Shown one piece after another: positions 2,107 through 29,109 of a DNA stretch of 64,000 nucleotides. The stretch lies in NCBI GenBank assembly GCA_020436125.1, contig JAGQYK010000004.1, forward strand, positions 27,815-91,814, read 5' to 3'. This DNA comes from Cyclobacteriaceae bacterium (lineage in GTDB: Bacteria; Bacteroidota; Bacteroidia; Cytophagales; Cyclobacteriaceae). The position numbers were made by a program, and so were the translations under genes. Under the pieces are notes generated by a model. That model did not search any database. It saw only the letters and a list, made by a program, of their open reading frames with translations, and had not been told where the DNA came from. Position 1 is the first letter of the stretch. Every line of letters begins with the position of its first letter.

Positions 2107-2113
2107 TTAAAAT

Positions 2114-4822
2114 CTGAACTTAACAAAATCACATATTGATTATATCGAGAAAGACCTCGCCCTCCGGGGTCTTATCCTTGAATCCCTAGAAAGTGAACTA
2201 CTGGATCACATTTGCACATTAGTCGAAAATGAAATGGCTACCGGAACCAGATTTCTTGAAGCCTACCACTCGGTGCTTATCTCCTTTGGCAATTCATCAG
2301 GAATTCAAGAATTACAAAAGCAAACGCTAGAATTTGAACAAACAACTCCAAAAATTATGATCTCCAATTACCTCAAGATTGCATGGCGCAACTTAAAACG
2401 TCAAAGTTTCTATACTACAATTAACGTAGCTGGATTGGCATTTGGCTTGGCTGCGTGCATCGTTATTGTATTATACATCAAAGATGAGCTCACCTACGAT
2501 ACCTATAATGTAAAAGCCGACCGGATATATCGCGTGGATGCTGATGTAAAGTTTGGAGGCAATGAATTTAAGATGAGCTACAGGAGTGCTCCAGAAGCCA
2601 TGGCACTAAGAGATGAATACCCGGAGATCGAATCGACTGTTCGTTTCAGAAATGCGGGTTCTTATCTCGTAAAAACTGCTGATGGAATAGATAACATCAA
2701 AGAAAACAATGTGATCTGGACAGACAGCACATTCTTCAAAATCTTTTCCGTGAACGTTTTGGAAGGAAATGCAAAAACAGCACTGACAGAACCAGCCAGC
2801 ATTGCCATTAGCAAACGCATCGCTGACAAATACTTTGGAAATAGTAATGCTCTGGGGCAATCAATGATTCTCGACAACAAGTACAATGCAAAGGTGACAG
2901 CAGTTTATGAAAACATACCAAGCGCTTCACATTTTCATTTTGATATACTCGTGTCTATGGTTGGTGATTGGCCTGTTGCCCGCGAAGCAAAAGCAACCTC
3001 ATTTCTTTCCGAAAATTTTACTACTTATCTTTTGCTTAAAGAAAATACAAATGCCAGTGCATTGGAAGCCAAGCTCCCTGCATTTCAGGAAAAATACATG
3101 GGCCCTGATTTGATCAAGGCGTTTGGAAATGATTTTACGCTGGAAAAACTTCGTGCCTCCGGCAGTAGGTACGACCTTTCACTTACTCCGCTAAGGGATA
3201 TTCACCTTTACTCCAATGTTCGCGGAGATTTCGAACCCAATGGCAGCATTACTTACATCTATTTATTCGGCTCAATCGCAATTTTAGTGCTGGCCATCGC
3301 GTGTATCAATTTTATGAACTTATCTACTGCACGTTCAGGAAGCAGGGCAAAAGAAATCGGGGTGCGCAAAGTAATGGGATCATTAAGGACTCACCTGATC
3401 CGTCAATTTCTTACTGAATCATTTTTAGTCACCCTCTCAGCCATAGGGCTTTCCGTAGTTATTGTGTACCTCTTTATTCCCTGGTTCAACTCCATTTCTG
3501 ATAAACAGATTACAATTCCCTTTGGTGAACCCTCATTCTATTTTGTGCTCCTTGGGGCCTCATTGCTTATCAGTTTCCTTGCTGGAATGTACCCAGCCTT
3601 TTTCCTTTCGGGCTTCAGGCCTATACAGGCCCTGAAAGGCAAGATCACCTCTGGAATGAAAAGCGGGTCAATCAGGAGCACATTAGTTGTCTTCCAGTTT
3701 GTTATTTCCATTTTCCTGATCATTGGCACAATCACCATTTCACGACAGCTTGATTTTATTCAAAATAAAAATTTAGGATTCGATAAAGAGCAGGTGATCA
3801 TTGTGCATGATGCCTACGCACTCCGACCCAATAGTGTAGAACCATTCAGGGATGAAGCTTTAAAACTAACCGGAATAGAAACAGGTACCATCTCCGGATA
3901 CGTGCCTGTAGAAAATGACTGGACTAGTAGAAGCAATACTGCTTTTTGGAAAGAGGGTGTTGAGTCCAATACTGAAAACATGGCGAGCTCACAACAATGG
4001 CGTGTTGACGATAATTATTTACAAACCTTTAGGATCAAATTAAAAGAAGGTCGCAATTTCTCCCCTGGTTCCCCTTCTGACTCAACAGCAATTATCCTCA
4101 ATGAAACCGCAGCCAGAAGATTAGATCTTGGAGATGATCCTATCGGGAAAAAGATTCACTCTTTTGACGGAAATCCTGATCCAGAAAATATTATTACCTG
4201 GACCGTCATAGGTATAGTGGAGGACTTTCATTTTTCCACTATGAAAGAAAGTATTTCAGGTCTGGCATTTTATCTGGGTCAAAATGATGGTAGTGTAAGC
4301 TTCCGATTTAATGCACAAAACGCCAGCCAGGTGATCCAATCCCTGGAATCCATTTGGAAAAAGCTAGCGCCAGGACAACCCTTCCAGTATTCTTTCCTTG
4401 ACGAAGATTTTGAACGGATGTACTTGTCTGAAGAGAGGCTGGGAGAAATCTTCACCATATTCTCGGGGCTCGCCATTGTCATTGCCTGCCTTGGTCTGTT
4501 CGCCCTTACTACTTTTACCGCTGAACAGCGCACCAAAGAAATAGGAATAAGAAAGGTGCTGGGTGCTTCAGTAAGCGGGATTGTGTTCCTTCTTTCAAAA
4601 GATTTTGGAAAGTTGATTTTGATTGCATTCGTAGTCTCCATACCCGTTGCCTGGTATAGTGTGGACTGGTGGTTGAGCAGCTATACCTATAAGACTGAAA
4701 TAGGATTTGGTGTTTACCTGCTTGCCGGTGTCCTTGCTTTTCTGGTGGCATGGATTACCATGGGCTACCAATCGATAAAAGCAGCAAGCTCCAATCCTAT
4801 CAATGCATTGAGGAGTGAATAG
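2114..4822 (+). CDS. ABC transporter permease, FtsX/MacB-like, paralog 2, with probable N-terminal helical prefix domain
   Basis: ORF track gives 2234..4822. The frame stays open back to TAA at 2108-2110, with CTG at 2114 giving (M)NLTKSHIDYIEKDL. The core permease begins at ATG 2357 (MISNYLKIAWRNL). The start position is uncertain. Confidence 0.88.
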   Translation: MNLTKSHIDYIEKDLALRGLILESLESELLDHICTLVENEMATGTRFLEAYHSVLISFGNSSGIQELQKQTLEFEQTTPKIMISNYLKIAWRNLKRQSFYTTINVAGLAFGLAACIVIVLYIKDELTYDTYNVKADRIYRVDADVKFGGNEFKMSYRSAPEAMALRDEYPEIESTVRFRNAGSYLVKTADGIDNIKENNVIWTDSTFFKIFSVNVLEGNAKTALTEPASIAISKRIADKYFGNSNALGQSMILDNKYNAKVTAVYENIPSASHFHFDILVSMVGDWPVAREAKATSFLSENFTTYLLLKENTNASALEAKLPAFQEKYMGPDLIKAFGNDFTLEKLRASGSRYDLSLTPLRDIHLYSNVRGDFEPNGSITYIYLFGSIAILVLAIACINFMNLSTARSGSRAKEIGVRKVMGSLRTHLIRQFLTESFLVTLSAIGLSVVIVYLFIPWFNSISDKQITIPFGEPSFYFVLLGASLLISFLAGMYPAFFLSGFRPIQALKGKITSGMKSGSIRSTLVVFQFVISIFLIIGTITISRQLDFIQNKNLGFDKEQVIIVHDAYALRPNSVEPFRDEALKLTGIETGTISGYVPVENDWTSRSNTAFWKEGVESNTENMASSQQWRVDDNYLQTFRIKLKEGRNFSPGSPSDSTAIILNETAARRLDLGDDPIGKKIHSFDGNPDPENIITWTVIGIVEDFHFSTMKESISGLAFYLGQNDGSVSFRFNAQNASQVIQSLESIWKKLAPGQPFQYSFLDEDFERMYLSEERLGEIFTIFSGLAIVIACLGLFALTTFTAEQRTKEIGIRKVLGASVSGIVFLLSKDFGKLILIAFVVSIPVAWYSVDWWLSSYTYKTEIGFGVYLLAGVLAFLVAWITMGYQSIKAASSNPINALRSE

Positions 4823-4908
4823 CAATTTATGGGTAGAATTATCAACAAATTGAAACTTGTTGTCATAGAGCACGTCTAAATCTTTATTAGAATAAGACCA
4901 CATCAGCG

Positions 4909-4938
4909 CTAATGCGTATTTTTAAAAGTACGCATTAG
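4909..4938. terminator. Near-perfect 30-bp inverted repeat (terminator or operator) between permease paralogs 2 and 3
   Basis: CTAATGCGTA-TTTTTAAAAG-TACGCATTAG has 10-bp perfect arms and is followed by TTCTTT. Confidence 0.5.
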
Positions 4939-4956
4939 TTCTTTATACAATTTGTT

Positions 4957-7437
4957 ATGTTAAAAAGCATCCTTCTCATTGCATTTCGGAATCTTCGGAA
5001 GCACACTTTTTATTCCACCATCAATATAGCCGGCCTTGCCATTGGGGTGTCTGCTTGTTTGCTGATAACGCTTTTCATTATAGATGAATTAAGTTATGAC
5101 AAGTACAACGAAAAGGCAGATCGCATTTATAGAATCAATAATGAGATAAAGTTTGGGGGTAATCATATTCAAGCTGCCACCAGTGCTGCACCCACGGCCC
5201 ACACACTATTACAAGATTATCCAGAGGTAGAAGCTACGGTAAGGTTTCGCAGCTATGGCTCTTATCTGGTAAAGGCAGAGAACAGTACAGAGAACATTAA
5301 AGAAAATAATGTGATCTGGACTGATAGCACTTTTTTTAAAATTTTCTCCGTCAAAGTAATTGAGGGCAATCCCAATACGGCACTGAAAGAACCTGCAAGT
5401 ATTGCTATTAGTCAGCGCACAGCAGAAAAATATTTTCCCAATGAAAGTGCACTAGGAAAGACGATGATTTTGGACAATAAGTACAATGCAAAGGTCACTG
5501 CTGTCTACGAAAATATTCCTTCCACATCACATTTTCATTTTGACATATTGATTGCAATGGTGGGCGACTGGCCTGTTGCCAGAGAGGCTCAATCCACAGC
5601 CTACCTCAGCAACAATTTCAACACTTATCTTCTTTTAAAGGAGGGTGCTGACGCAAAAGCGTTTGAAAGAAAATTCCCTGAATTTTTGATCAAGTACATT
5701 GGTCCACAAATAGCTCAAGCGCTGGGCATTGAATTCACGTTGGAAAAATTCAGAGAAGAAGGAAACGTGTATGAGATGACGCTGATTCCCTTGCGCGATA
5801 TTCATTTGCATTCTGATGCTACGGCTGAGTTGGAGTCCAATGGCAGCATTACTTATGTCTATCTCCTGGGAATTGTTGCCTTTTTCATTTTGGGAATTGC
5901 TTGTATCAATTTTATGAATTTAAGTACCGCAAGGTCAAGCAACCGGGCAAAAGAAGTGGGTGTGCGCAAGGTAATGGGTTCTGCACGCACCAATTTAGTT
6001 CGACAGTTTTTATTGGAATCAACAATGGTGACTGTCTTTGCCTTTTTCGTTGCCATCTCACTGGTTTACCTTGCTCTTCCCATTTTCAATGGTCTTGCAT
6101 TAAAACAACTGCATATCCCTTTTGACAACCCCGTTTTCTATCTCATCATGGTAGGTGCCGCATTGCTGGTGGGAATGATTGCCGGAATTTATCCTTCTTT
6201 TTTTCTGTCAGCGTTTAATCCGGTGGATGTTTTAAAGGGCAAAGGTTCCAGCGGTATGAAAAGCGGGTTGGTTAGAAGCGGGTTGGTTGTTTTTCAATTT
6301 GTTATTTCAATTTTCCTCATTGTGGGTGCAATCACTGTTAACCGACAATTGCAATACATTCAAAACAAAAAACTTGGGTTCAATAAAGATCAGGTGATTG
6401 TTATCCAGGATGCTTATGCCTTGCGTCCCAATAAAGTGGAAAGTTTTAAACAAGAAGTTTTAAAAAATAGTAACATCCAAAGTGGTACTATCTCCGGATA
6501 CCTGCCAGTTAAAAATGGAAATTCATCACGTAGCGATAATCCGTTCTGGAGAGAAGGTAGCGATCCATCAACTGAAAATATGGTGAGCATGCAAAATTGG
6601 CAAGTCGATCACGACTACCTAAAAACTTTTGATATGAATATTTTAGAAGGCAGAGACTTTTCTCTTGATTTTCCTTCAGACTCCTCAGCAGTAATTTTAA
6701 ATGAAGCAGCAGCATATCAATTTGGTTTTGATGGGGATCCCATTGGCAGAAGGATCAGTACTTTGGGTGGATCTCTTCCAGATGGTTCTCCTGATCCAAA
6801 CAATACGAAATCATGGACCATCGTAGGTGTGGTTGAAAATTTTCATTTCTCTACCATGCGTGAGAGCATCACCCCGCTTGGACTTTTTATTGGAAAAAGT
6901 GATGGGAGTGTTTCTTTCAGGTATAGTGCTAAAGATTCCCAGGAGGTTATTCAAACCATAGAAAATACCTGGAAGTCGCTGGCGCCCGGTCAGCCTTTCC
7001 AATATTCCTTTTTGGATGATGACTTTGGCGGGATGTATGCTGCCGAACAAAGACTTGGAAAAATATTTACTTTCTTCGCTGGGCTTGCCATTGTCATTGC
7101 CTGTCTTGGTTTGTTTGCTCTTACGGCATTTACTGCAGAACAGCGCTCCAAAGAAATTGGAATTCGCAAAGTGCTTGGGGCATCTGTAAGTAGCATCGTG
7201 CTTTTGCTTTCCAAAGAATTCGGCAGACTCATTATTATCGCTTTCATCATTGCTATTCCTTTTGCCTGGTACAGTGTGGACTGGTGGCTAAAGGGATATG
7301 TTTATAAAGCTCAAATTGGTGCAATGGTGTATATGATAGCCGGATTGATTGCCTTTTTAATAGCGTGGCTTACCATGGGATATCAATCTATTAAGGCAGC
7401 GAGTTCCAATCCTATCGATGCGCTAAAAAGCGAGTAG
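4957..7437 (+). CDS. ABC transporter permease, FtsX/MacB-like, paralog 3
   Basis: 826 aa; MLKSILLIAFRNLRK N-terminus; same FtsX motifs as paralogs 1 and 2. Confidence 0.93.
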   Translation: MLKSILLIAFRNLRKHTFYSTINIAGLAIGVSACLLITLFIIDELSYDKYNEKADRIYRINNEIKFGGNHIQAATSAAPTAHTLLQDYPEVEATVRFRSYGSYLVKAENSTENIKENNVIWTDSTFFKIFSVKVIEGNPNTALKEPASIAISQRTAEKYFPNESALGKTMILDNKYNAKVTAVYENIPSTSHFHFDILIAMVGDWPVAREAQSTAYLSNNFNTYLLLKEGADAKAFERKFPEFLIKYIGPQIAQALGIEFTLEKFREEGNVYEMTLIPLRDIHLHSDATAELESNGSITYVYLLGIVAFFILGIACINFMNLSTARSSNRAKEVGVRKVMGSARTNLVRQFLLESTMVTVFAFFVAISLVYLALPIFNGLALKQLHIPFDNPVFYLIMVGAALLVGMIAGIYPSFFLSAFNPVDVLKGKGSSGMKSGLVRSGLVVFQFVISIFLIVGAITVNRQLQYIQNKKLGFNKDQVIVIQDAYALRPNKVESFKQEVLKNSNIQSGTISGYLPVKNGNSSRSDNPFWREGSDPSTENMVSMQNWQVDHDYLKTFDMNILEGRDFSLDFPSDSSAVILNEAAAYQFGFDGDPIGRRISTLGGSLPDGSPDPNNTKSWTIVGVVENFHFSTMRESITPLGLFIGKSDGSVSFRYSAKDSQEVIQTIENTWKSLAPGQPFQYSFLDDDFGGMYAAEQRLGKIFTFFAGLAIVIACLGLFALTAFTAEQRSKEIGIRKVLGASVSSIVLLLSKEFGRLIIIAFIIAIPFAWYSVDWWLKGYVYKAQIGAMVYMIAGLIAFLIAWLTMGYQSIKAASSNPIDALKSE

Positions 7438-9302: not shown

Positions 9303-10637
9303 TTATTTATACTGTTTTCCATGCTTAATCACCATATCCACATCCTGAAGTAAATCGATATGGCGCAACACATCTCCCTTTACTGCAATAATGTCTGCAT
9401 ATTTTCCCGCTGACACTGTTCCATAATCTTTATCCACACCCATAAGTACTGATGGCCAATAACTGGCTGCGCGTAAAGTATAAATCGGGTCCAGCCCAAA
9501 TTCGTTTACCCACACATCCAATTCATTCCACGTGCTTTGGCTGTGAAATTTTAATGGTACTCCGCTATCCGTACCGATCAACAAAACAACTCCGGCATCT
9601 TTCAGTTGTTTCATTTTCCGTTCCAGCGTTGGTTTACGAATTGGATTCAATTGAAAATACGGAAGTTGACCGGGCTGTTGAATCGAACCTTTGATATCTT
9701 GAATAATAGAATCTGGCAAATCTAAATGCCAGGAGTCGTTATCCAATTGCTCAGGATTATCGCGGATGTAGTTGTAATTATAAAGTACCTCCACTGTAGG
9801 TGTCCAAAAGAAAGGACCCAGATTCATTTGGGCAGTGCGCTCTTTGATCATGGCCATAATATCTTCTGGATATTCGGGGGCAGAAGAAAGACCGGTATGT
9901 TCGAAACAGTCGATACCGACTTTCATACCTCTGCGAATTTCTTCAGGTCGATGGGAGTGGCCGACTACTTTCAAATTATTCTTATGAGCTTCATCTACCA
10001 CCGCTTTTACTTCTTCCATAGTCATTTCATCCTGATCAATTAGTTTGATGAAGTCAACTCCCGCCTTAGCCAATTTTTTTATTTTATTCCTCGCATCTGC
10101 CTCGCCATTCACACCCCAACGGAAATCCTCCGTTCCTGGGTAAGGCTTATGCTGAATAAATGGGCCAGACATGTACATTGTTGGTCCGGGGATTTCACCC
10201 TTATTAATTCTATCACGCACATTGATACTCGCTTCAAGTGGAGCTCCTAAATCACGTGCGCTGGTAACTCCTGCCATCAATAATTGATGAGCAGATGACG
10301 GCATGATTACTTTTTCTAAAATCGGTGGTTTGTATGTTTTGTCCCAATGCGTGTAATCACTGTGTCCGTTCAACATTAGGTGGGTGTGCATGTCCCATAG
10401 CCCTGGCATTACACTCATTCCTTCTGTAGAAATTATCTCAGCTCCTTTTGGAATCTCTACCTCTCCTACACGCCCTACTTTTTTTATTCGTTCACCTTCG
10501 ATAATGATAACACTGTTCTGAAGGGGTGTGCTTCCGAATCCATCAATCAATGTGCCTCCTACCAGCGCTTTCACATTGGTTTGTGCCCAGGAAGTATAAC
10601 TCGCCACGAAGCAGAGCAGTACAAAAAGTTTTCTCAT
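9303..10637 (-). CDS. Secreted amidohydrolase family protein (Xaa-Pro dipeptidase-like)
   Basis: PGLWDMHTH (HxH), VGHSH, IGTDSG, GKYADIIAV; signal peptide MRKLFVLLCFVASYTSWAQ. Start moved from TTG 10685 to ATG 10637. Confidence 0.88.
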   Translation of the reverse strand: MRKLFVLLCFVASYTSWAQTNVKALVGGTLIDGFGSTPLQNSVIIIEGERIKKVGRVGEVEIPKGAEIISTEGMSVMPGLWDMHTHLMLNGHSDYTHWDKTYKPPILEKVIMPSSAHQLLMAGVTSARDLGAPLEASINVRDRINKGEIPGPTMYMSGPFIQHKPYPGTEDFRWGVNGEADARNKIKKLAKAGVDFIKLIDQDEMTMEEVKAVVDEAHKNNLKVVGHSHRPEEIRRGMKVGIDCFEHTGLSSAPEYPEDIMAMIKERTAQMNLGPFFWTPTVEVLYNYNYIRDNPEQLDNDSWHLDLPDSIIQDIKGSIQQPGQLPYFQLNPIRKPTLERKMKQLKDAGVVLLIGTDSGVPLKFHSQSTWNELDVWVNEFGLDPIYTLRAASYWPSVLMGVDKDYGTVSAGKYADIIAVKGDVLRHIDLLQDVDMVIKHGKQYK

Positions 10638-11324: not shown

Positions 11325-13229
11325 TTATTGAACCGGGATATTATCAAAATCTCCCCGTAATTGTCGATACCTTTTTCTTGCTTCGGCTGCATACACACTT
11401 CCTGGAAATCGATTCAAAAATTCGCGATAGATTTCCATAGCAGGATCCTTTTCCTTTTTATAATTCTCCAGGATATCACCCTGTGTAAAGAAGGCATCGT
11501 CCGCTAAAATATCATCTCCATACTCATCAATAATTTTTTGCAACAAGGTATATGCTTTGTCAAATTCTCCGCGCTTTAGCCGAAGTTGTGCCTCAAGCCA
11601 ATAGACATCATCGAGTATAGTGGTGTTAGTAATTTTTGCTGCAGCGCTATCTATTGGTTCCTTTGAAGGAAGTATACCACTTTTTAAACTGGCCATGCGC
11701 ATCAGTGCCGTATCTACTTTATTCTGGTACAGTAACAATTCAATTGCGGCATACTCTTTCAGCGCTGTTCCCACACTATCAAAAGTGGTATTCTCTTTTA
11801 TGCGGATACTTAGGTCCATGGCATCGTTCGCGATTTCTCTGGTCGTAGCTTCCTTAAGTATATCAAGATGCTCTTGTGCCAAGGCAAAATCTCCTTTATA
11901 ATAAGATAGCTTTGCGTTTCGCAATTTGGCCTCATAACCAATAGGTGTTTCGCGCTGAGAACGTTCAACTTGAGAATATAACAGCGTAGATTCCCAGGGC
12001 TCTTCTTTGAGCATGTAAATATCACCCATTTCCAATTTTGCTTTCGCCTTAATATAGGGTGCAACACGAGGGTTTTCTATAAGCACATTCAGCTTACCTA
12101 TGGCAGCATCTTTTTCATCCAACAGGTATCCATAAAGTGAAGCCTGATTTAAAATGGCTTCATATGAATTAGGGTTTTCCGGATAAGTATCGGTGAATGA
12201 CTCATACTCTGCAATGAGGTACCGAACAGAATCCTTTTTTATAGGATAGCTTTTTTTCACTTTGGCCTCACGTGCTTTGATCAGACCCAATCGAGCAGGC
12301 AAGTAATTATCAGTATTGGCATATTCCTTCACTACATACGAAAAGCCTTTATCCGCATTTTCAAAATCTTCATTACTTAATGCGATGTTAGCTATATCCA
12401 GTGTTTTTGAGGATTCCTTTTTGAATCTTTTGTCGTAGGCCCTGGCTTGAACAAATGCTCCGTAAAAATTTTTTTGTTGAAGATTAACCCAAATGAGTAA
12501 ATCGGCATACACTTCGGAGTCAGGATTTCTTTGGACTTTTTCGTAAAGTAATCTTTCCAACGCTTCCATTTCTTCCGGCTTGGTAAGAAGAATCTGTAGA
12601 AGATTTTTTACATAATTAATATTTCCCGGAGTTTGGGTAACGTAGTTGAGATACTCTTCGACCATGGCATCCCGGTTACCCTGCAGCCGGTAGAGGTTAG
12701 CCAATTCGAGGGTGAAAAGCGAATTGTTGGAATGCACATCACGTGCCTCTTGCATAGCCATAACCGCATAATCGGTAAGGCGCTGTGAAGCCAAATAATC
12801 AGAAATTGATTTAATGCGATAGATATCGTTTGCGTTAGCCTTGATAACACTTTTAAATTGTTTTTCAGCTTTTTGAACATCACCACTTTTGATGTAGACC
12901 AGACCAAGATCAAGATGGTAATTAATCCTGTTATCAACCTTGCGAATAAGCTTCTCGACATAATTTTCGGCATCCTTATACTTGCCAAGATCCAACATTA
13001 AATTCAAGAAATCATTGTGTATTAATGGAATGTTGACAAAATCCCGCGCTAAATCCTCGTAAACTTTCAGCGCCTTTTCTTTTTCGCCCTTTGCAGCGTA
13101 TTCGCTTGCAATTTGAATTTCTTGTCTGTTTTGTGCGAAAGCACTGAAGCTGGGTAGTGCACAAAGAACACATACTAATGTTATACTATTAAATATATAT
13201 TTTAAATAACTACTATAAGGGCTGTGCAT
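11325..13229 (-). CDS. Secreted/periplasmic tetratricopeptide-repeat protein
   Basis: 634 aa of repeated helical TPR-like units (e.g. YHLDLGLVYIKSGDVQKAEKQFKSVIK); signal cleavage site AFA-Q. Confidence 0.85.
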   Translation of the reverse strand: MHSPYSSYLKYIFNSITLVCVLCALPSFSAFAQNRQEIQIASEYAAKGEKEKALKVYEDLARDFVNIPLIHNDFLNLMLDLGKYKDAENYVEKLIRKVDNRINYHLDLGLVYIKSGDVQKAEKQFKSVIKANANDIYRIKSISDYLASQRLTDYAVMAMQEARDVHSNNSLFTLELANLYRLQGNRDAMVEEYLNYVTQTPGNINYVKNLLQILLTKPEEMEALERLLYEKVQRNPDSEVYADLLIWVNLQQKNFYGAFVQARAYDKRFKKESSKTLDIANIALSNEDFENADKGFSYVVKEYANTDNYLPARLGLIKAREAKVKKSYPIKKDSVRYLIAEYESFTDTYPENPNSYEAILNQASLYGYLLDEKDAAIGKLNVLIENPRVAPYIKAKAKLEMGDIYMLKEEPWESTLLYSQVERSQRETPIGYEAKLRNAKLSYYKGDFALAQEHLDILKEATTREIANDAMDLSIRIKENTTFDSVGTALKEYAAIELLLYQNKVDTALMRMASLKSGILPSKEPIDSAAAKITNTTILDDVYWLEAQLRLKRGEFDKAYTLLQKIIDEYGDDILADDAFFTQGDILENYKKEKDPAMEIYREFLNRFPGSVYAAEARKRYRQLRGDFDNIPVQ

Positions 13230-13493
13230 TTGTGGATAAGTCTAAGGTCTCAAAGACATGGGTTTAACTTGTGGATAGATATTGTATAGAAAGTGCTGCT
13301 AGTTTATCTAAATACTATGTTAACCTTATTATTCCACAATTTTATAAAATGTGAATCAAGGCTGTCTACAAATTAACGAACTGTGTATAAATATTATTGG
13401 ATCAGAGTTATCAACGAGAAATATCATTTATGAAAGGATTTCTAGTCATTAACTGGTTTGCCCTCCAGTTTGGGTGAGTTTTCCACAATGGTT
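13190..13493. other. Candidate chromosomal replication origin (oriC): DnaA-box cluster with AT-rich flank
   Basis: Exact TTWTNCACA at 13231-13239(-), 13382-13390(-) and 13479-13487(+). One-mismatch boxes at 13270-13278(-), 13330-13338(+) and 13350-13358(-). Degenerate boxes at 13222-13230(-) and 13408-13416(+). About 2.6 kb from mnmG and 4.5 kb from a parS pair. Confidence 0.8.
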
Positions 13494-15206
13494 TTAGAAT
13501 ATCAACAATAGAGGGCCTAGCTCCCAATTGGCTCTAATTGGGAAATCGTATTTTTTGTCTTGTGTTTGGTAGAACCATATTGACTCTGGTTCTTCTCTAT
13601 TATAGAAGTTTCCTGGATCCCATTTTCCATTATTGTTTTTGTCAAGTATTACCTTGATTTTATAGTTTTTCGGTTGAAGATATTGAAATGCATATTTGTT
13701 CAGATTTTTAATCTCTTCCACTATTTCTCCATCTGGCGATGTAAGCTGAATGATAAAGTTGGGCTCATTGGTTTGAACCTCTATTAAAAGTGTGCCTGTA
13801 GCGCCTTTTTTTATTTCAGTAATTGGGAATTTTTGGAATTTCAACGTGTCTGATTCCTGACTAATTATTGACCCTTTATTGAATACTAGTTCTGGTTGGG
13901 TGGTTTGCGGAAGTGTTCGCGGTAATCGGCCTGGCTCTCCCTTCACCCTTTTAGTTATTTGTTCATTGGTAGGTGGCTGTATTTTCTGTTCTCTGAATAA
14001 AGAGTCTTGCGGTATAAGCTTTTTCACTGTTAACCTTTTCTTAATTGTGTCATATAATAAGTCACTTCGGTTGACTGATATAGAATGGAGGGAATCAAGT
14101 CTTACGAATATACTGTCTGTGTTTATAAATAGGATGGGTTTAGAAAATTTGAATTCTTGCGTTAGCGTATTTGTCGTTAGTGAGTATTTAATGTTTTGAG
14201 GGGCTACTGTGAAATCACTTGGAATAGAATTAGCCTTTAGAGGCTTTATAAAAAATGTCGTGTCCATGATAGATCCAATACTGTCGGTTGAGCTGAGAAA
14301 TATTTTTATACTGTCAGTTACTATTTTTGGATTATAGACGGCAATCTCTGTTTGATCGTCTCCGAATGACTTGACCAAAGATTCATTTGTTTCTGCTTTG
14401 ATGGTAAACTGGGTAATACTTTTGTTGAATTTAATTCTAGTTGTTAGGCCTGTATTCCTAATGTTATTTATAGACAGTGGACGCATATCCATACTGATTA
14501 ATGGAATAATTAATGAATCAATAGGTCCAGTTAACTCGAGTTGGTCTTTTAGAAATCCAAATTTCTCTGTTCTACTTTCTACTTTTAGATTTTTATTGTT
14601 GTCTTGAAATGCGTACAAATAATAGTTTCCGCTCTTAATGTTTTCAAGGCTATATGCTCCTCTATCATCCACCAGAGTGAAATAGTTAGGTGAATGCTGA
14701 AAGATGTTAAAAGTATCGGAGGCATAAAGTGCCACTGTTATTTTCTCAGGGACTTTAGTGTTCAGGGCCATCGTTACTTTTCCTTTCACGTTCATGGAGT
14801 CTATTAAGGGACCAGTACTGAATGCAAGCTTTAAATTTTTAGGAGCGTTGTTTTCTGTGATGTCTTTTATCCCTTCTCGAAATGCTATGGAGTAAGTTGT
14901 ATTTTCATCCCATCCTTTTTCTGGTATCAGTGTGACTGTATTTTTCCTGACTTTGTATTCTATTTCTTGATCAGATCTGGGCGAGATAAGTATTTCTTCT
15001 TTAGGATTGTTGAGGTTGATGGCCTCATCAAATAATAGTGTGACTTCTTTTCCTTTAAAGTTCCTTTGTTTGTTGTCTGGAGTTGATTCAATAAGGGTCG
15101 GTGGTGTTTCATCCTTAGGCCCTCCCATTGGTGTTGTTTGGTTGGCGCAGCTCCATAGCAGCAGGATGTACAGAGATAGAATGATACTAGTTGCATTTCT
15201 ATGCAT
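13494..15206 (-). CDS. Ig-like (Big_5-type) domain lipoprotein with C-terminal EF-hand-like DxNxNGxWD motif
   Basis: LLLWSC lipobox, CANQTTPMGGPKDETPP, ILDKNNNGKWDPG. Start at ATG 15206 overlaps the upstream stop codon. Confidence 0.8.
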   Translation of the reverse strand: MHRNATSIILSLYILLLWSCANQTTPMGGPKDETPPTLIESTPDNKQRNFKGKEVTLLFDEAINLNNPKEEILISPRSDQEIEYKVRKNTVTLIPEKGWDENTTYSIAFREGIKDITENNAPKNLKLAFSTGPLIDSMNVKGKVTMALNTKVPEKITVALYASDTFNIFQHSPNYFTLVDDRGAYSLENIKSGNYYLYAFQDNNKNLKVESRTEKFGFLKDQLELTGPIDSLIIPLISMDMRPLSINNIRNTGLTTRIKFNKSITQFTIKAETNESLVKSFGDDQTEIAVYNPKIVTDSIKIFLSSTDSIGSIMDTTFFIKPLKANSIPSDFTVAPQNIKYSLTTNTLTQEFKFSKPILFINTDSIFVRLDSLHSISVNRSDLLYDTIKKRLTVKKLIPQDSLFREQKIQPPTNEQITKRVKGEPGRLPRTLPQTTQPELVFNKGSIISQESDTLKFQKFPITEIKKGATGTLLIEVQTNEPNFIIQLTSPDGEIVEEIKNLNKYAFQYLQPKNYKIKVILDKNNNGKWDPGNFYNREEPESIWFYQTQDKKYDFPIRANWELGPLLLIF

Positions 15207-16095
15207 GACCCGCAATATATATAAGGCTTGAATAATTCATTGTTTTTCTTGCTTTGGCATTCGAACTCAATCCTGTCAGAAGTGCCTTTATAGGAGTAGC
15301 CAAGCTGTGCTTTGAATTGTTCTTGTATTTTTCACTCAATAATGAAACGTAATAAGCATCCAGCTTCATTGGCAATATTTCTTTCAATAGGAGTTGATTA
15401 TTGTCAAAAAGCCTTGTCACATTTTTTTGAGAGAAGTGCCAGAAGTGCCTGGGTACATCATAGGCAGCCCAGTGGGATTGATAGTGTTGTGCGTCATAAG
15501 ATTTATGGTTAGGGACAGCAACAAAAATTAATCCATCTTCCTTTAACTTTTCTTTTAATTGAGCTATCAGCGTGTTGGGATTGGGAACGTGTTCCAGTAC
15601 ATGCCAAAGTGTGATGATGTCAAATTTATTTTCAGGAAGTTCTTCTAGTTTTTCAAATACGGATAAATTTTTGTTTTGTGATTTAATTTTTGCTCTAGCT
15701 TCTTTAGATGGCTCCACTGCAGAACCCTCCCAATTGTTATTGGCCATGTAATTGATAAACTCGCCAGTGCCGCAACCATAATCTAATATAGTGCCTCTCG
15801 TTTTTCTCGAAGTGATAATATCGTGTTTCCAACTGAGGGTATAATTTCTAGCCTTTAAATAGATCCAATCAAATATGGAGTTGCTTTTACCTGTATGAGA
15901 AATGTATTCCTCTGATTTGTAGAACTCACCAATTGATTGTTGGTCTGGCCTTGGACTGGTGAGTAGCAGTTGGCACGACTGACATTGTAGAATGCTGAAT
16001 TGCTGGTGGCTATAGGTGTAGTCCTCACAGTTAAATACATGTTGAAAAGATGTTCCCCTGCAAACCGGACAAAGCTTTACGAGTTCAGTTTGCAT
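15199..16095 (-). CDS. Class I SAM-dependent methyltransferase with N-terminal Zn-ribbon
   Basis: CPVC...CQSC; ILDYGCGTGEF motif I; DIITLWHVLEH. Confidence 0.88.
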   Translation of the reverse strand: MQTELVKLCPVCRGTSFQHVFNCEDYTYSHQQFSILQCQSCQLLLTSPRPDQQSIGEFYKSEEYISHTGKSNSIFDWIYLKARNYTLSWKHDIITSRKTRGTILDYGCGTGEFINYMANNNWEGSAVEPSKEARAKIKSQNKNLSVFEKLEELPENKFDIITLWHVLEHVPNPNTLIAQLKEKLKEDGLIFVAVPNHKSYDAQHYQSHWAAYDVPRHFWHFSQKNVTRLFDNNQLLLKEILPMKLDAYYVSLLSEKYKNNSKHSLATPIKALLTGLSSNAKARKTMNYSSLIYIAGHA

Positions 16096-16098
16096 TGA

Positions 16099-17961
16099 TT
16101 ACTTTCCCATGTAGATTGTGAGTACTGAGATGTCTGCCGGGTTAACGCCACTTATCCTCGAAGCCTGCCCCAGTGTTTCGGGTTTTATTTTTTTAAGTTT
16201 TTCTCTGGATTCTGAAGACAGCGCTTTTACCCTATCATAGTCGAAATCTGGCTTTATTTTGTAATGCTCTAGTCCCTCAATCTTGTGAGCCAATTTTTCT
16301 TCTCGGTCTATATAAGTGATATACTTTACCTGAATTTCTGCTTGTTCCTGCACTTCTGGTTCGAAAGCGGAAACATAGTCGTTGATAGTAGTATGTACTC
16401 TTTTTAATTCCTGCATTCCTATTTCGGGGCGCTTAAGAAAATTTACAACGGGAACTCTTTCTCTAATTGTTGCGGACTTTAGCTCAGTCAGGTTTTCGTT
16501 GACCGCAGTTGGATCTAGCTTAAGCTTTTCAAGTTCTTTGATAAGCTCTTCTACTTTTTCCTTTTTCTTTAACACTTTCTGCAGGCGTTGATCATCTGCC
16601 AATCCAATCTGATGACCTATCTCTGTTAAGCGTAGATCGGCATTGTCCTGTCGAAGCAGAATTCTGTATTCTGCTCTGGAGGTAAACATGCGGTATGGCT
16701 CAATTGTACCTTTGTTCACAAGGTCATCAATCAATACACCGATGTAGGCCTCTGATCTTTTAAGTACAAGGGCCTCCTTTTCATTAATTTTATTATGTGC
16801 GTTTATTCCCGCCATAAGACCCTGACAAGCGGCCTCTTCATACCCTGTTGTGCCGTTGATTTGACCTGCAAAGTACAGATTATCAATTAGTTGCGTCTCT
16901 AACGAGCGCTTCAATTGTGTAGGGGGAAAGTAGTCGTATTCAATAGCATATCCTGGCCTGAACATTTTGGCTTTTTCAAAGCCTGGTATCTTGATAAGTG
17001 CTTGGTATTGAATGTCTTCAGGTAAGGATGTCGAAAACCCATTGACATAAATTTCAACAGTATTCCACCCTTCTGGTTCTACGAAGATTTGGTGTCGGTC
17101 TTTGTCGGCAAACCTATTGATCTTGTCTTCTATCGATGGGCAGTAGCGCGGACCTAGTCCTTGTATCCTTCCCTGGAACATTGGAGACTTGTCAAACCCT
17201 TTTGCTAACTCCTCATGGACCCCCTCGTTGGTGTAGGTGATCCAGCAGCTTACTTGTTTATTTAGAGGCTGGGTTTCCGTGAATGAAAATTTACCCGGAT
17301 GTTCGTCCCCAGGCTGTTCTTCCATTTTTGAATAATCCAGCGATCTCCCATCCACCCTTGGAGGTGTACCAGTTTTCATTCTTCCCGACTCGAATCCTAG
17401 TTGAATCAATTGTTCAGTTAATCCAGTGGCGGCCTTTTCGCCTGTTCTTCCTCCACCAAAGTTTTTCTCTCCTATATGAATCAATCCATTTAGGAATGTG
17501 CCATTAGTAAGTACTACGGCTTTGGCTTTAATTGCTAGGCCCAGGGATGTCTTTACTCCTTTTACTTTCCCATTTTCTACAATTAGACCAGAGACCATTT
17601 CTTGCCAGAAGTCTACATTGGGTGTCCGCTCAAGCATTATTCTCCACTCTTCAGCAAACTTCATTCTATCGTTCTGGGTTCTTGGACTCCACATTGCTGG
17701 TCCTTTTGATCGGTTCAGCATTCTGAATTGGATCATCGATCGATCAGATACAATTCCGGAGTACCCCCCCAAAGCGTCTATTTCCCTAACTATTTGACCT
17801 TTGGCTACTCCTCCCATTGCTGGATTGCAAGACATTTGACCAATCGTGGTCATATTCATAGTCACTAATAATACTTTGGACCCCATGTTGGCTGCTGCTG
17901 CCGCAGCTTCACAGCCAGCATGCCCACCACCCACTACAATAACATCGTACTCTTGAAACAT
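16099..17961 (-). CDS. mnmG: tRNA uridine-5-carboxymethylaminomethyl modification enzyme MnmG (GidA)
   Basis: YDVIVVGGGHAGCEAA, MSCNPAMGG, GPRYCPSIEDK, AGQINGTTGYEEAA. Confidence 0.99.
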   Translation of the reverse strand: MFQEYDVIVVGGGHAGCEAAAAAANMGSKVLLVTMNMTTIGQMSCNPAMGGVAKGQIVREIDALGGYSGIVSDRSMIQFRMLNRSKGPAMWSPRTQNDRMKFAEEWRIMLERTPNVDFWQEMVSGLIVENGKVKGVKTSLGLAIKAKAVVLTNGTFLNGLIHIGEKNFGGGRTGEKAATGLTEQLIQLGFESGRMKTGTPPRVDGRSLDYSKMEEQPGDEHPGKFSFTETQPLNKQVSCWITYTNEGVHEELAKGFDKSPMFQGRIQGLGPRYCPSIEDKINRFADKDRHQIFVEPEGWNTVEIYVNGFSTSLPEDIQYQALIKIPGFEKAKMFRPGYAIEYDYFPPTQLKRSLETQLIDNLYFAGQINGTTGYEEAACQGLMAGINAHNKINEKEALVLKRSEAYIGVLIDDLVNKGTIEPYRMFTSRAEYRILLRQDNADLRLTEIGHQIGLADDQRLQKVLKKKEKVEELIKELEKLKLDPTAVNENLTELKSATIRERVPVVNFLKRPEIGMQELKRVHTTINDYVSAFEPEVQEQAEIQVKYITYIDREEKLAHKIEGLEHYKIKPDFDYDRVKALSSESREKLKKIKPETLGQASRISGVNPADISVLTIYMGK

Positions 17962-17973
17962 ATATTTATTTAA

Positions 17974-17989
17974 CGTTTCACGTGGAACA
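17974..17989. other. parS centromere-like site 1
   Basis: CGTTTCACGTGGAACA versus consensus TGTTTCACGTGAAACA (2 differences). Confidence 0.82.
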
Positions 17990-18018
17990 TGGATTGAGGA
18001 GAAGCCCCTGTTTTCTTA

Positions 18019-18034
18019 TGTTTCACGTGGAACA
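18019..18034. other. parS centromere-like site 2
   Basis: TGTTTCACGTGGAACA versus consensus TGTTTCACGTGAAACA (1 difference). Confidence 0.88.
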
Positions 18035-18039
18035 AGTTT

Positions 18040-18459
18040 TTATTTACGCAAAGATAGGTAAGCTTCTTCTTTTTTGCGCATAAGGGCCTTATCGCTAGAT
18101 TTTTTGTCCTTATAGCCCAATAGATGTAGTACCCCATGGATAATCACGCGGTGAAGCTCTTCGTCAAAAGGAACTTCAAAATGCTTTGCGTTTTCCTCTA
18201 CTCTTTCAACACTAATATAGATTTCCCCTGAGATAGGTGCACCTTTTTCAGAATGGTCAAAAGTGATGATGTCTGTAAGGGTATTATGATTGAGGTATTG
18301 CTGATTAATGGAGAGTAGGTACTGATCAGAGCAGAAGATGTAGTTCAACTCGTTGAGTTGCCCTTTTTCTTTCTTAATGGCTTCTTTGATCCAGGTAATG
18401 GTTTTTCTGGGGTGAGCTAGTTTAAAAGTGGTTTCTTCTGTGAAGAATCGAACCGCCAT
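18040..18459 (-). CDS. ybeY: rRNA maturation endoribonuclease YbeY
   Basis: TDIITF and HRVIIHGVLHLLGYKD (H-x3-H-x5-H-like zinc site). Confidence 0.96.
   Translation of the reverse strand: MAVRFFTEETTFKLAHPRKTITWIKEAIKKEKGQLNELNYIFCSDQYLLSINQQYLNHNTLTDIITFDHSEKGAPISGEIYISVERVEENAKHFEVPFDEELHRVIIHGVLHLLGYKDKKSSDKALMRKKEEAYLSLRK
18049..18056 (-). promoter_or_regulatory. -7 promoter element TATCTTTG for mnmG (inside the ybeY 3' end)
   Basis: Exact TAnnTTTG followed by CG. Confidence 0.6.
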
Positions 18460-18863
18460 TAATTATCAATATAAAAGCTAAGTTCAACCACCTTACCATT
18501 TTCTTTGAAATCAACCTCATCAGATAGGTGTTTCATCAGGAAAATGCCTCTACCCCCAGGCTTTTCAATATTTTCCGGGGCTGTTGGGTCCGGCAGGTTA
18601 TGAAAATCAAAACCATTCCCCTCGTCCTCTACTTTAAACTTGATAAGACCATCCTCTAATGACAAGGCAAGGGTAACATTCTTGCCAGACTCGTTCTTAT
18701 TGCCGTGCTTAATGGCATTGTTCACGGCCTCAGTTACTGCAATCATGATATTGCCATAGATATCATCATTGAGACTGAATTTCTCCTTCGCATTGTCGAT
18801 AAAGCTCTCAATCATCCTTATATTCTCAGAAAGGGACGGGATTTCAATACGAAAGTTGTTCAT
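18459..18863 (-). CDS. ATP-binding protein, RsbW/anti-sigma-factor kinase-like (HATPase_c_2)
   Basis: AVTEAVNNAIKHGN, VEDEGNGF, GGRGIFLM; TAATG overlap with ybeY. Confidence 0.88.
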   Translation of the reverse strand: MNNFRIEIPSLSENIRMIESFIDNAKEKFSLNDDIYGNIMIAVTEAVNNAIKHGNKNESGKNVTLALSLEDGLIKFKVEDEGNGFDFHNLPDPTAPENIEKPGGRGIFLMKHLSDEVDFKENGKVVELSFYIDN

Positions 18864-18904
18864 TTGATAATAGCCAGTTTAAAGTGTAATACCTTTAAGC
18901 GAAC

Positions 18905-21900
18905 TCATTGAAAGTTTTCTATTCGCTTAAAATACTCATTCACCTCCTTCTTGTAATAAGGATACAGTTTAGGGGGTACCGTTTTCAACAATTCTACTTC
19001 TTTTTCCTTTAATCTTAAATATTCTTCAAATGCTTTTGGGAGTTGCTTTTGATATTCTTTAGCTGTCTCCCCTTTGCGCTCTTCATCCATATTTTGCTCT
19101 CTCATCGATTTCTCAGTTTCTAAGAGCCGTGTGAGTATATCCTTTTGCCTTCTGATGGTTTGCTCAGTCAGTCGCTTGTTAACAAGATCCATTTCCGTTT
19201 GTTCCATTTTTCCAGGAATATCACCCCCAGGTGCTTTCCCTCCCTGTTGCTCTAACTTCTCTTGCATCTCCTGTAACGCTCTTCTTATTCTTTCTTGTTC
19301 CGCAGCCATTTTGGCCAGTTCTTCGGAAAGCTGCCTTCCGGACTTACCACTGTTTTTCAATTGCTCTATCTGATCATTAAGCTGCTGCTGTAGTTCTCCC
19401 AGGCTTTCCTTCCCCTTAGCTTTCCCTTTTCCTTTGGAGGGCATGGCGTTGGCCATCATATCCATCATCATGTCAAAGTGATCATTCAGCATAAGTGCAA
19501 GGTTGTTGATACTGGTCATCGATAGTTGCATCTCAGATCCGGCATTGCCTTTTCTTCTCTCTTTAATGTTTTCCACTGCCTTATCTACGTGATCGTTTAG
19601 CTCACCCACCTCTCTGGTGACGATCGATCCCATGAATGGATCGCGCTTGGCGAGAGATAACAGGCTGTCTTCCAGTACTTTAGAGTCATCTTTAATTTTT
19701 AATTGCTGCTGGCTGAGTTTCACATATTTGGGATCTGTTTGCTGAACCTGGACAAAGTCCTTCATAAGCGACTCCTGATCATACGACAATTTAATTAGCC
19801 CATGGAGTATCTGACGCAGCGATTCTAGGTTCTCCATATCAATCTCCATTTGCATCGTATTCTGCATCCCCTCCATTTGTTGCTGCATTTGCTTCATTTT
19901 CTCTGCAGCTTTCTTTTGTTGTTCCGTTGCCTTTTTGGGTTCTCCTTGTTCCAACGATTCTTTACTTTCTTGCTGAGAATTCTTTACGTCACTCATTTCA
20001 TCCTCAGACGGGGTGTCGGCTTGTTTTTTGATCTCTTCGCCTATTTTATTTAGATCTTCTAAGGTTTTTTCGAACTGTTCAAATTCTTTTGACAATTCGT
20101 CCTGTTCCTTGGCTAAACTTTCATTCTCTTTAGGCGAATCGGATGATTCTTCACTTTTATCTCCTTTATTATTCTCCTCACCAGATTTTGAATCTTTATT
20201 GTCGGACTTATCACCTTGGTCGTTTTGTGGCTTCTCTCCAGCTGCTTCCTGCGTTTTCTTTAGTAAGTCTTCTTGTCTTTTAGTCTGATCCTTTATTTCC
20301 TGAATAGCTTGATCCAGTTTGTAGTCGTACTGCATCTGCTTGAATAACTCGAGTGTGCGTTCTAATTCTTTTTCAAGATTGATCTCTTTACGATCCATTT
20401 TGTCCAACTGCTTTTGAATATCATTCACATCAGCATTTTCGCGCATTAATTTTTCCAGTTCCTCAAAGAGCTTTTTGGTTTCATCATCAAGGAGTTCGTC
20501 CATCAATTTTTGTAATTGTTCGGATCTTTCCTTCATTTTCTCATCCATCTCTGAAAGCCCCTCCTTCTTTTCATTCAGCATTTCGTTTTGCTTTTGCAAA
20601 TCATTAATCAACTGATCGAGATTTTGCTTTTGCTTGATGAGGTCCTCCAGCATTTTTTGATCTTGCCATTCCATTGATTTCTTTCCTCTTAACTTTTGCT
20701 GTGCCTCGTCAATGGATTCTTTAAGGTCTTTTGCCTTCTTAAGACTTTCATCAATTTTACTTTCCGTGTTTTGTTGGGATCGACTGATATCCGCTTTCAT
20801 CTCTTGTTCGCTTGGAAGCGCAAACACATATGAAGAAGAGCGAGTAGATTTGCGGCCATTCACTCCATCGTTGTCCCACACTTCAAGATAATAGTTGATC
20901 CGTTCTCCTGGCTGTAGTTGAAGGGAGTCAAGCACCCATTGGTGAAAGAAACTTTGCTTGAGTTGGTTTTTATGAACCGGAATGGAAATGACTTTATTAG
21001 GACCCGCAGCCTCCTTTGTTACTTTTTGGTAGTTCAATGCCAAGGCGCTTATACCATAGTCATCGGAGATGCTACCTCCCAATAATATCGTTTTATAGAG
21101 AATAGAATCACGAAGATGGTCAACGACAATTTGTGGGTGTTGATCCTTAACTACATTAATTGAATAAGAGATCTGATCTTTATTCTTTGAATGATCATTT
21201 TCTAAAGCAATCCAGTAGCCCTCAGAATTGTTAAAGTTCTGATTGTGCCTAAACTGCTGATTATCAACTAATTGCATTTGATTTTCTTCCCCTGAGGATG
21301 TGAAACCAATGGCTGCTTTTGCTGCGTTGGCAGCCCCAATGAGCCAAGTAATGTTTGTTCCTTCGGGAATTTCTAGGTTCCCGGTGTTCAGCAGCACCTC
21401 ACTTTGTTTAGCAAGATATCGGGGGTAAGTAAGCGTCACCTTTAGTTGGGTAAGCTCAGGTCGGTTAATCATGTTGATGGTATATCCATCAGAATAAAAC
21501 CCGGAAGCTTCAAACTGAAAGGGAATTTCGTTTTGAAGTTTTTCGAAAGTGTAGGTGTATGAGGAGTTCGAAAGCGACTCCATTTTAAAACGCTGATTTC
21601 CAGATTGAATATATACTGCTTCAGGTAAGGCTTGTCCTTCGAGGTTTAGGTTCAAAGTAAAATCCTCATTCATGAAGGCATTGAGGTTTTGGTTTTGTAC
21701 TATAAAATTGAAAGGTGCTTTTGGAGAGAATTCCCTGTTGAACTGAACAATGCGCTGTGTGCTTTGTGTAAAAATCCCATTGTTAATAAAGAAGAGCACC
21801 AACATAATCCCGAATGGAATCAAAAGATATTTGAGATACTTCTTATTGGCGCCCAAATCAATGGCACTTTCAAAAGTTACGTTTTCGAATTGTCTCGACT

Positions 21901-22291: not shown

Positions 22292-22425
22292 ACAATCACC
22301 TTAACCGTGGAAACGAATAGCCAGTCTAGATAGTTTAGAATTTACTAAGATAAGAATGGAGTATTCCGAATTCAAAACCATCCATCAGTTAAATAGACGA
22401 TTGTCTCCTCCAAGTTGGGCGATAT

Positions 22426-22794
22426 CTACACAATGTTGGAGACCCAGCCATATTCCAATTCAAAGTATTCCAGAACATGAATCTTCAACAACTTTTCTTG
22501 CTCTAGCAAATCGAAGTGAGGCAATTTTTTGATGAGGTTCCAGTGTGGCCATCCGTCCTTGTCGGTTCCCTCCAATTCATAATACCCTGAAAGACTCAGA
22601 ACCTTGCAGATGGCAATGTGCAGAAGGTCTTGCTTTTCTTCTTTAGAGAAGAGTGCATGGCCCCTACCCAGTTCTTGCACCCCTATCAAAAAAAGGACTC
22701 CGTTGAGGTCTTTCGGCTTTTTCCCCAACTTTTCGTCCAGCTCAGCCAAAAGCCATGCCCACTTTCTCTCTAGTTCAAGGTCTCTTTTATACAT
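22426..22794 (-). CDS. Conserved Bacteroidota hypothetical protein
   Basis: LFLIGVQELG...EEKQDLLHIAICKVL...DKDGWPHW; overlaps the stop of the upstream CMD gene. Confidence 0.75.
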   Translation of the reverse strand: MYKRDLELERKWAWLLAELDEKLGKKPKDLNGVLFLIGVQELGRGHALFSKEEKQDLLHIAICKVLSLSGYYELEGTDKDGWPHWNLIKKLPHFDLLEQEKLLKIHVLEYFELEYGWVSNIV

Positions 22795-23128: not shown

Positions 23129-23193
23129 GGGTATAGAAAGTTAGTGATGCAAATATGATGTCATTAACCATCAAAACAAATGGATAGTTTGCG

Positions 23194-23877: not shown

Positions 23878-23913
23878 CATTCTTAATGGTGAATTAAAAA
23901 CTGACACAACAAA

Positions 23914-23942: not shown

Positions 23943-23963
23943 ATATAATTATTTTAATTCTTC

Positions 23964-29088: not shown

Positions 29089-29109
29089 ACCTTCAAAAAA
29101 TAAGGATGG

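Follow-up and report, generated by a model that had tools for sequence, protein, structure and literature searches.

A probable chromosomal replication origin with a basal unwinding system beside a TPR-protein gene in an uncultured activated-sludge Cytophagales bacterium

Organization of the locus and its DnaA boxes

The DNA analyzed here is a stretch of 64,000 nucleotides (64 kb; hereafter the window) from contig JAGQYK010000004.1 of a Cyclobacteriaceae bacterium (assembly GCA_020436125.1), and the element in question is a candidate chromosomal origin of replication (oriC) at 13169–13493. Most of the element is an intergenic gap of 264 bp (13230–13493), bordered by the start of a minus-strand gene for a TPR-repeat protein with a signal peptide (11325–13229; Pfam TPR families) and by the stop of a minus-strand gene for a Big_5/DUF2141 Ig-like protein (13494–15215; Pfam), which is transcribed toward the candidate origin. 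A sequence-only reading of this DNA had named the gap as a probable oriC. The sequence architecture, its conservation, the local switch in strand bias and the absence of dnaA nearby were computed directly in this study.

About nine DnaA boxes are distributed over 13223–13487; an origin is expected to have three or more, at a mean spacing below 100 bp. At the left edge, box 1 (13231–13239, minus strand, TTATCCACA) is an exact match to TTWTNCACA and faces the AT-rich element, and the weaker box 2 (13223–13231, minus strand, AAATGCACA) has three mismatches, points the same way as box 1 and overlaps it by one base. A one-mismatch box with the orientation of box 1 lies 39 bp upstream of it (13270–13278, minus strand, CTATCCACA), and its TATCCACAAGTTAAACCC is kept in close relatives. 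Two further one-mismatch boxes are found at 13330–13338 (plus strand, opposite to box 1, TATTCCACA) and 13350–13358 (minus strand, TGATTCACA); in an alignment of 14 close relatives, the TGTGGA core of the former is conserved, and the ACA core of the latter is invariant and usually preceded by C. Exact boxes are located at 13382–13390 (minus strand, TTATACACA), where the ACA core is likewise invariant, and at the right edge of the cluster (13479–13487, plus strand, TTTTCCACA), 6 bp from the Big_5 stop codon and with a conserved TGTGGA core. The degenerate box at 13369–13377 (plus strand, CTGTCTACA) has an invariant TTTGT core and is replaced by a perfect TTATCCACA in the same columns of one relative (L012), and the degenerate box-like site at 13408–13416 (plus strand, TTATCAACG) contains CGTTGATAACT, which is almost invariant in the 14 aligned relatives. 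The three exact, three one-mismatch and two degenerate boxes in mixed orientation that the sequence-only reading had counted in the gap are all present, and every box on its list is real; box 2 was missing from that list.

No other stretch of the window has a dense group of DnaA boxes, and the gap also ranks first in density for boxes at most one mismatch from TTATCCACA. Exact TTWTNCACA occurs nine times in the 64 kb, and three of the nine lie inside the 264-bp gap. When the whole window was modeled by 1000 first-order Markov simulations, three or more exact boxes per 264 bp arose in two, giving a window-wide P of about 0.002. This value speaks against the idea that box-like words have come together by chance in an AT-rich spacer, an explanation that can draw on the frequency of TTWTNCACA with one mismatch (199 matches in the window vs. 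182 expected) and on the fact that six matches of this level per 264 bp are, taken alone, only modestly unusual.

The left edge of the cluster is a basal unwinding system

The left edge of the cluster has the canonical arrangement of a basal unwinding system (BUS), consisting of tandem co-oriented boxes, a G+C spacer, DnaA-trios and an AT-rich element. This system is known from Bacillus subtilis incC and has been predicted for 1755 of 2070 species (Richardson 2016/2019; Pelliciari 2021, PMC8287927). Its orientation and notation were fixed here from the table of predicted BUS sequences (Table S2 of Pelliciari et al. 2021, PMC8287927) and checked against the entries for Escherichia coli, S. aureus and Salinibacter ruber in that table.

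The 3-bp spacer between box 2 and the first trio (13220–13222) reads GCC on the minus strand, and the corresponding positions in relatives (offsets 17–19) are variable and G+C-rich. Box 1 is correctly oriented and lies within 16 bp of the trios, with the optional weaker second box in between; its distance from the first trio is 11 bp, and the published spacer lengths peak at 10–13 bp (Pelliciari et al. 2021, PMC8287927). Five DnaA-trios follow on the plus strand (13205–13219), which read 3'-GAA TAT CAT CAA TAA-5' outward from the boxes. They exceed the usual minimum of three consecutive trios (3'-NAN-5') with a GAT-like trio nearest the box, with the caveat that the trios are in register with a codon frame. 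The first trio matches the published consensus 3'-GA(A/T)-5', and GA(A/T) is found in 78–97% of 58 unique relatives. Trios 2–5 (3'-TAT CAT CAA TAA-5'; 3'-TAW and TRW in relatives) differ from the BUS consensus GAT.

Together with the trios, the AT-rich DNA unwinding element spans 13169–13219 and has an A+T content of 86%; it is near-invariant in close relatives and reaches at least 80% A+T in 62 related loci. The element beside the trios is intrinsically unstable: the least stable 30-mer of the window is 13180–13209, and the least stable 50-mer is 13170–13219, with a dG of −46.9. The window averages −63.9 (sd 3.9), which places this 50-mer about 4.4 sd higher. The AT-rich tract that the sequence-only reading had noticed at the left end of the gap is real, being this least stable 50-mer, and it extends further left than was described, into the predicted TPR reading frame. 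Similarly, the gap proposed as the candidate holds the box cluster, but the element as a whole reaches about 13169, and its unwinding part is inside the predicted TPR coding sequence.

Written 3'→5' as in Table S2, the window reads AATAGGTGT / TTACGTGT / CGG / GAATATCATCAATAA. The corresponding entries (PMC8287927, Table S2) are AATAGGTGT / AAAGGTGT / GCT / GATTATTAT for Salinibacter ruber, AATAGGTGT / ATAGGTGT / TCGG / GATAATGAT... for Bacillus anthracis and AATAGGTGT / ATAGTTGT / CAGG / GATAAT... for Clostridium novyi; the E. coli entry, used to fix the notation, is AATAGGTGT / CCCGTCACGC / TAGGATTAT. The layout of the window agrees almost base for base with the Bacillus, Clostridium and Salinibacter entries, and its box 2 has the same sequence as that of the Mycobacterium avium BUS (TTTACGTGT in 3'→5' notation). 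As in published systems, two co-oriented boxes abut, the upstream one being nearer the consensus, and a short G+C spacer leads to at least three trios with a central A, the first of which is 3'-GA(A/T)-5', with the AT-rich element beyond. In contrast to published systems, this one is not beside dnaA/dnaN, its trios and AT-rich element lie inside a conserved reading frame, and its activity is predicted.

Conservation of the cluster and the unwinding module

The best 120 TPR-protein homologues listed all belong to one clade, and 80 Cytophagales loci (Cyclobacteriaceae, 'Ohtaekwangia', Chryseolinea, Chryseotalea and Chryseosolibacter) were fetched as relatives, with TPR-protein identities to the window from 94% down to 49%. 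An identical TPR protein is encoded on contig JAWKMF010000003.1 of a metagenome-assembled genome (GCA_041392385.1), where the candidate origin lies at about 499.4–499.7 kb, and the sequence recurs in activated-sludge and wastewater metagenomes. Among the 71 loci with upstream sequence, the densest box cluster of the 22-kb locus, with up to 10 boxes, is found 260–340 bp upstream of the TPR gene in most cases. Over the 300 bp that precede the anchor box, each locus has about one box per 100 bp vs. a background of 0.048, an approximately 20-fold enrichment, and no second conserved box cluster was detected within 10 kb in the relatives.

When the 14 close relatives are aligned, the gap proves to be scrambled outside the boxes and one block. 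The block TTATCCACAAATGCACAGCCCTTATAGTAGTTATTTAAAATATATATTTAATAGTATAACATTAG (minus strand, 13239 down to about 13175) is nearly invariant and exceeds the flanking coding sequence in conservation. Furthermore, we searched with a composite pattern that allowed up to two mismatches in box 1 and required a directly adjoining box 2 with a final ACA, followed by a 50-nt stretch of 80% A+T or more. Counting both strands, the window has one match; the related loci (1.44 Mb) have 63 on the TPR strand and none on the other, and 62 of the 63 are at the syntenic position. The cluster and the BUS are thus kept at the same spot in 62 genomes whose TPR identity is only 49–94%. The final ACA of box 2 is imposed by the search pattern; its fourth base, T, is conserved in 97% of relatives.

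Among the 58 unique sequences, the consensus of box 1 is strongly kept, and box 2 is followed by three variable G+C-rich bases and then by C-T-W, A-T-W, A-Y-W, M-Y-T and A-Y-W. On the box strand, T has frequencies of 0.97, 0.88, 0.62, 0.72 and 0.62 at offsets 21, 24, 27, 30 and 33, with a pyrimidine in 93–100%, and A has frequencies of 0.98, 0.91 and 0.88 at offsets 23, 26 and 32. The complementary strand of the relatives accordingly reads 3'-GAW TAW TRW...-5', a DnaA-trio run with 3-nt periodicity over five trios. In 62 genomes, position, orientation and register are kept within an otherwise scrambled gap, and this conservation effectively refutes a chance aggregation of boxes, to which we give next to no probability.

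Three other box-like or conserved words were noted. Three good co-oriented boxes (ATATCCACA, TTATCCACA, TTACCCACA) occur within 180 bp at 9334–9514, inside an amidohydrolase gene and 3.8 kb from the proposed origin. They were rejected as a second cluster, being without conservation or enrichment at the equivalent place in the 62 related loci, and are probably lineage-specific or due to chance. A seemingly conserved box-like word +200 to +225 bp into the TPR gene (window 12990–13040), recurring in many relatives, was also rejected as an origin element; it consists of the codons of a conserved Ile-His-Asn-Asn-Tyr motif (ATC CAC AA), and synonymous changes break the box in many relatives, a warning that in-gene box counts can mislead. 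Beside the rightmost box, a 19-nt element (13460–13478, GCCCTCCAGTTTGGGTGAG) that is not a DnaA box is kept in most of the 14 relatives; it might be bound by a further origin protein or mark where the Big_5 transcript ends. On the minus strand, the gap has no terminator-like site downstream of the Big_5 gene, and an Rfam scan of 12500–14200 matched no RNA family.

Strand composition around the cluster

The raw cumulative GC skew follows gene orientation and was therefore replaced by the per-gene GC skew at four-fold degenerate sites. To the right of about 13 kb, plus-strand genes are mostly G-rich at these sites (0 to +0.27, with two negative), and minus-strand genes are mostly C-rich (most −0.03 to −0.47). 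On the left side, this pattern is reversed: three plus-strand FtsX/MacB genes have skews of −0.12 to −0.27, and five minus-strand genes pool at about −0.01. It is the four-fold-site skew of these three genes that reveals the polarity switch on the left side. The three are tandem paralogous genes for double FtsX/MacB-type permeases (4–7437; 700+, 862 and 826 residues).

The switch was located by a two-rate likelihood scan on the four-fold-site skew. The best position is 10.7 kb, with a plateau from 7.4 to 23 kb; position 13361 lies 2.4 log-likelihood units below the best, and a model without a switch is 17.7 units worse. Leading strands are generally G-rich, and because of this rule, the change from C-rich to G-rich on the plus strand is the polarity of an origin, not of a terminus. 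A leading/lagging switch of origin polarity is thus seen locally, in the 64-kb window and in the pooled relatives. In the 62 pooled loci, genes pointing toward the BUS have a skew of −0.169 (n = 220), those pointing away +0.013 (n = 294), and those on the opposite strand of that side −0.098 (n = 98). Leading minus lagging skew is positive in 57 of 60 related loci, which share genes and ancestry and are therefore non-independent. Collectively, the strand-bias test is supportive but not decisive.

Neighboring origin markers and the absence of dnaA

Within the neighborhood of the gap lie mnmG (gidA; 16099–17961, minus strand), identified by a TIGR00136 match of 858 bits (E = 3e-258), and two parS sites, one with a single mismatch (17974–17989, TGTTCCACGTGAAACG) and one exact (18019–18034, TGTTCCACGTGAAACA) relative to the 16-bp parS palindrome TGTTNCACGTGAAACA. 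mnmG is a marker of origin neighborhoods. These features are 2.6–4.8 kb from the gap, in agreement with the sequence-only reading, which had placed mnmG and tandem parS within 5 kb. In most related loci, parS recurs about 4.7 kb from the BUS, and mnmG is also nearby.

Pfam scans of the 47 larger open reading frames of the window detected no dnaA, dnaN, rpmH or parAB, and a tblastn search with E. coli DnaA gave no match in the window. Neither dnaA nor dnaN was found within 10 kb in the 80 related loci, so adjacency to these genes, a common but non-defining property of origins, is lacking here. The earlier statements that the window holds no dnaA, dnaN or rpmH and that the candidate is unlinked from dnaA are borne out; the lack of linkage extends over a minimum of 13 kb to one side and 50 kb to the other. 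There are well-known examples of origins distant from dnaA.

The locus might be one part of a split or dual origin and act in concert with, or alongside, another DnaA-box region at some other chromosomal site. Firmicutes and Helicobacter have bipartite origins (PMC7561715, PMC8235120), and the view here is limited to 64 kb of the genome. In contrast to this locus, where dnaA is absent, the known bipartite origins flank dnaA within about 2 kb. Moreover, the locus already has a multi-box cluster and a complete unwinding module, and the relatives have no second conserved cluster within the 10 kb surveyed. We regard a split origin as very unlikely.

Overlap of the unwinding element with the TPR reading frame

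Box 2 contains the predicted ATG of the TPR gene (13229–13227), and the first 20 or so codons of this gene coincide with the trios and the AT-rich region. In 60 of the 62 loci, no stop codon interrupts this frame from its ATG (offset 10 or 16) across the trios and the AT-rich element; relatives whose box 2 has no ATG have an in-frame ATG 6 nt further on. The other two frames close within 0–18 codons, and the open frame leads into a protein of about 630 residues. The N-terminal peptides differ in sequence and are alike in composition (MHSPYSSYLKYIFNSITL, MNTTNYYQLYFKKIFCNTIL, MTYYNYIYIYIIKIIRKYTL), being rich in Tyr, Asn, Ile and Lys, that is, in AT-rich codons. The only Lys/Arg residues ahead of the hydrophobic core of the signal peptide are encoded within the AT-rich element. 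These features fit a DNA composition that constrains a tolerant TPR N-terminus. The translation start at the box-2 ATG is predicted, not proven, and public gene calls disagree on it, giving proteins of 598–686 residues. The NCBI call for one relative begins 21 codons past the box ATG, a start that would make the signal peptide too short to be plausible.

Four wastewater metatranscriptome runs have contigs over the gap and its two flanking genes (13084–13325 and 13326–13635, depth 2–5), and in two of these runs a single contig reaches from 13084 to 13310/13325 and includes both the AT-rich element and the tandem boxes. This coverage was rejected as proof of transcription, as read-through RNA is inseparable from contaminating DNA and transcript starts are not callable. 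It fits read-through transcription, and carry-over of DNA remains an alternative. Since the TPR gene is predicted to begin with the unwinding region, the origin appears to be transcribed through and is probably also translated through.

The overlap raises a different explanation, namely that the boxes form a DnaA-controlled operator or promoter of the TPR gene, or a titrating or reactivating site of the datA/DARS type, and that the true oriC lies elsewhere, for example by dnaA. The boxes are directly upstream of the predicted TPR start codon and overlap it, origins normally have no coding overlap, the gap is covered by the RNA-library contigs, and the dnaA locus is outside the examined DNA. 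The E. coli datA and DARS sites and the DnaA-box clusters of B. subtilis similarly have several boxes in a short stretch near the origin region. Unlike the window, these clusters are without an adjacent trio/AT-rich module and without a strand-bias switch. An operator or titration site would have no need of the module of tandem boxes, spacer, trios and AT-rich element, yet this module is kept in exact register in 62 genomes. Here, too, lies the least stable duplex of the window, the polarity of the strand bias flips around the cluster, and parS sites are adjacent. As for a promoter, the Bacteroidota −7 motif TAnnTTTG is missing from the gap, though it occurs just upstream of many other genes of the window; sigma-70-type matches are not meaningful in this phylum, and the promoter reading of the gap was rejected. 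In view of this balance, we consider an operator or titration site unlikely, and an origin remains the preferred interpretation.

Elsewhere in the window, TAnnTTTG stands a few bases before several predicted starts, overlapping one of them (for example 51932–51939, 39947–39954, 57698–57705, 56056–56063 and 29110–29117), a placement that suggests very short leaders. The motif is under-represented window-wide (53 matches vs. 69 expected).

Discussion

In this study, 13169–13493 emerges as very probably the chromosomal oriC of an uncultured activated-sludge Cytophagales bacterium. This interpretation is based on four independent lines of evidence: a box cluster that ends in a BUS, its syntenic conservation in 62 genomes, the reversal of skew, and the proximity of parS and mnmG. 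Together they uphold the original assignment of a probable oriC. The locus has every sequence-level attribute of a BUS-type oriC.

Several observations weigh against this interpretation. The raw cumulative GC skew of the window has its minimum near 28 kb, and the minimum shifts to 10–13 kb only upon correction for gene strand. Even then, the switch is resolved to only about 16 kb (roughly 7.4–23 kb), gene-specific skew effects are as large as the replication effect, and the gene for a 1128-residue protein on the 'lagging' side has a skew of only −0.04 to −0.08. Of the coding sequence in the window, about 70% by length, as summed from the coordinates of the open reading frames, would be head-on to forks from the proposed origin and would lie on the lagging strand. 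A near-unbroken minus-strand run of 15.6 kb (13494–29112) points toward the proposed origin and would thus be head-on; it includes the genes for the Big_5 protein and a methyltransferase, mnmG, ybeY, the genes for an anti-sigma-like kinase and the 1128-residue DUF4175 protein, and mfd. In addition, the periodic T positions of the trios are third positions of TPR codons, and the periodicity is therefore not purely a DnaA signal; part of it could come from coding. Finally, a second or stronger box cluster may exist beside dnaA elsewhere in the genome.

By analogy with the BUS of B. subtilis, we infer DnaA binding, melting and firing at this locus. DnaA would occupy the roughly nine boxes across 260 bp, and the perfect box at 13231–13239 and the abutting weaker box would anchor an oligomer of ATP-DnaA. 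The oligomer may then cross the 3-bp G+C spacer onto the five plus-strand trios, from 13219 down to 13205, and stretch and open the AT-rich element to about 13169, where the helicase would be loaded. The parS pair, 4.5–4.8 kb away, would load ParB for segregation of the origin.

The position of the trios within a gene allows a further, tentative proposal. The unwinding half of the origin (box 2, trios and AT-rich element) might double as the translated 5' end of a conserved secreted TPR gene in at least 60 species, the origin DNA dictating a Tyr/Asn/Ile/Lys-rich N-terminus and firing and expression being mechanically coupled. Under such coupling, DnaA would sit over the region of the start codon, and melting would be helped by transcription passing through the element. 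We consider this possible but rather doubtful.

Compared with known origins, the locus resembles that of E. coli (gidA/mnmG, oriC, mioC) in lying away from dnaA in the neighborhood of mnmG. Box 1 is comparable to E. coli R1, a single high-affinity box beside the unwinding element across a G+C-rich spacer. In contrast to E. coli, the 13-mer L/M/R repeats are missing, and the gap has one GATC (13400–13403), so the locus is not of the E. coli type. Moreover, mnmG is 2.6 kb away with two genes in between, and its transcription runs toward the proposed origin, not in the opposite direction. Within the same order, the oriC of Cytophaga hutchinsonii (about 4.058 Mb in NC_008255) was validated and used in replicative oriC plasmids, as cited in PMC3531139 (Xu et al. 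2012); the program-chosen BUS entry of this species looks different and weak. Tandem boxes leading into A+T-rich trios (TATAGGTGA / AAGAGGTGT / ...) are likewise seen in the origin that DoriC predicts for Marivirga tractuosa. For several Cytophagales, DoriC places the origin at a long distance from position 1 of the record.

Bacteroidota origins have hardly been studied experimentally. BUS-type origins, dnaA-unlinked origins and Cytophagales origins are already known as such; the added interest of this locus lies in the overlap of an unwinding element with a reading frame. It offers a base-resolved origin candidate, conserved over a family-level clade of mostly uncultured wastewater and soil bacteria, whose unwinding module is shared with Firmicutes and Actinobacteria, which supports the view that the BUS module is ancestral. 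In these lineages, the candidate may anchor growth-rate estimates that draw on metagenome coverage, and in culturable relatives it may provide a starting fragment for origin-based plasmids. The overlap of the unwinding element with a reading frame is unusual; if translation does start at box 2, an origin and a gene would here share sequence in nature.

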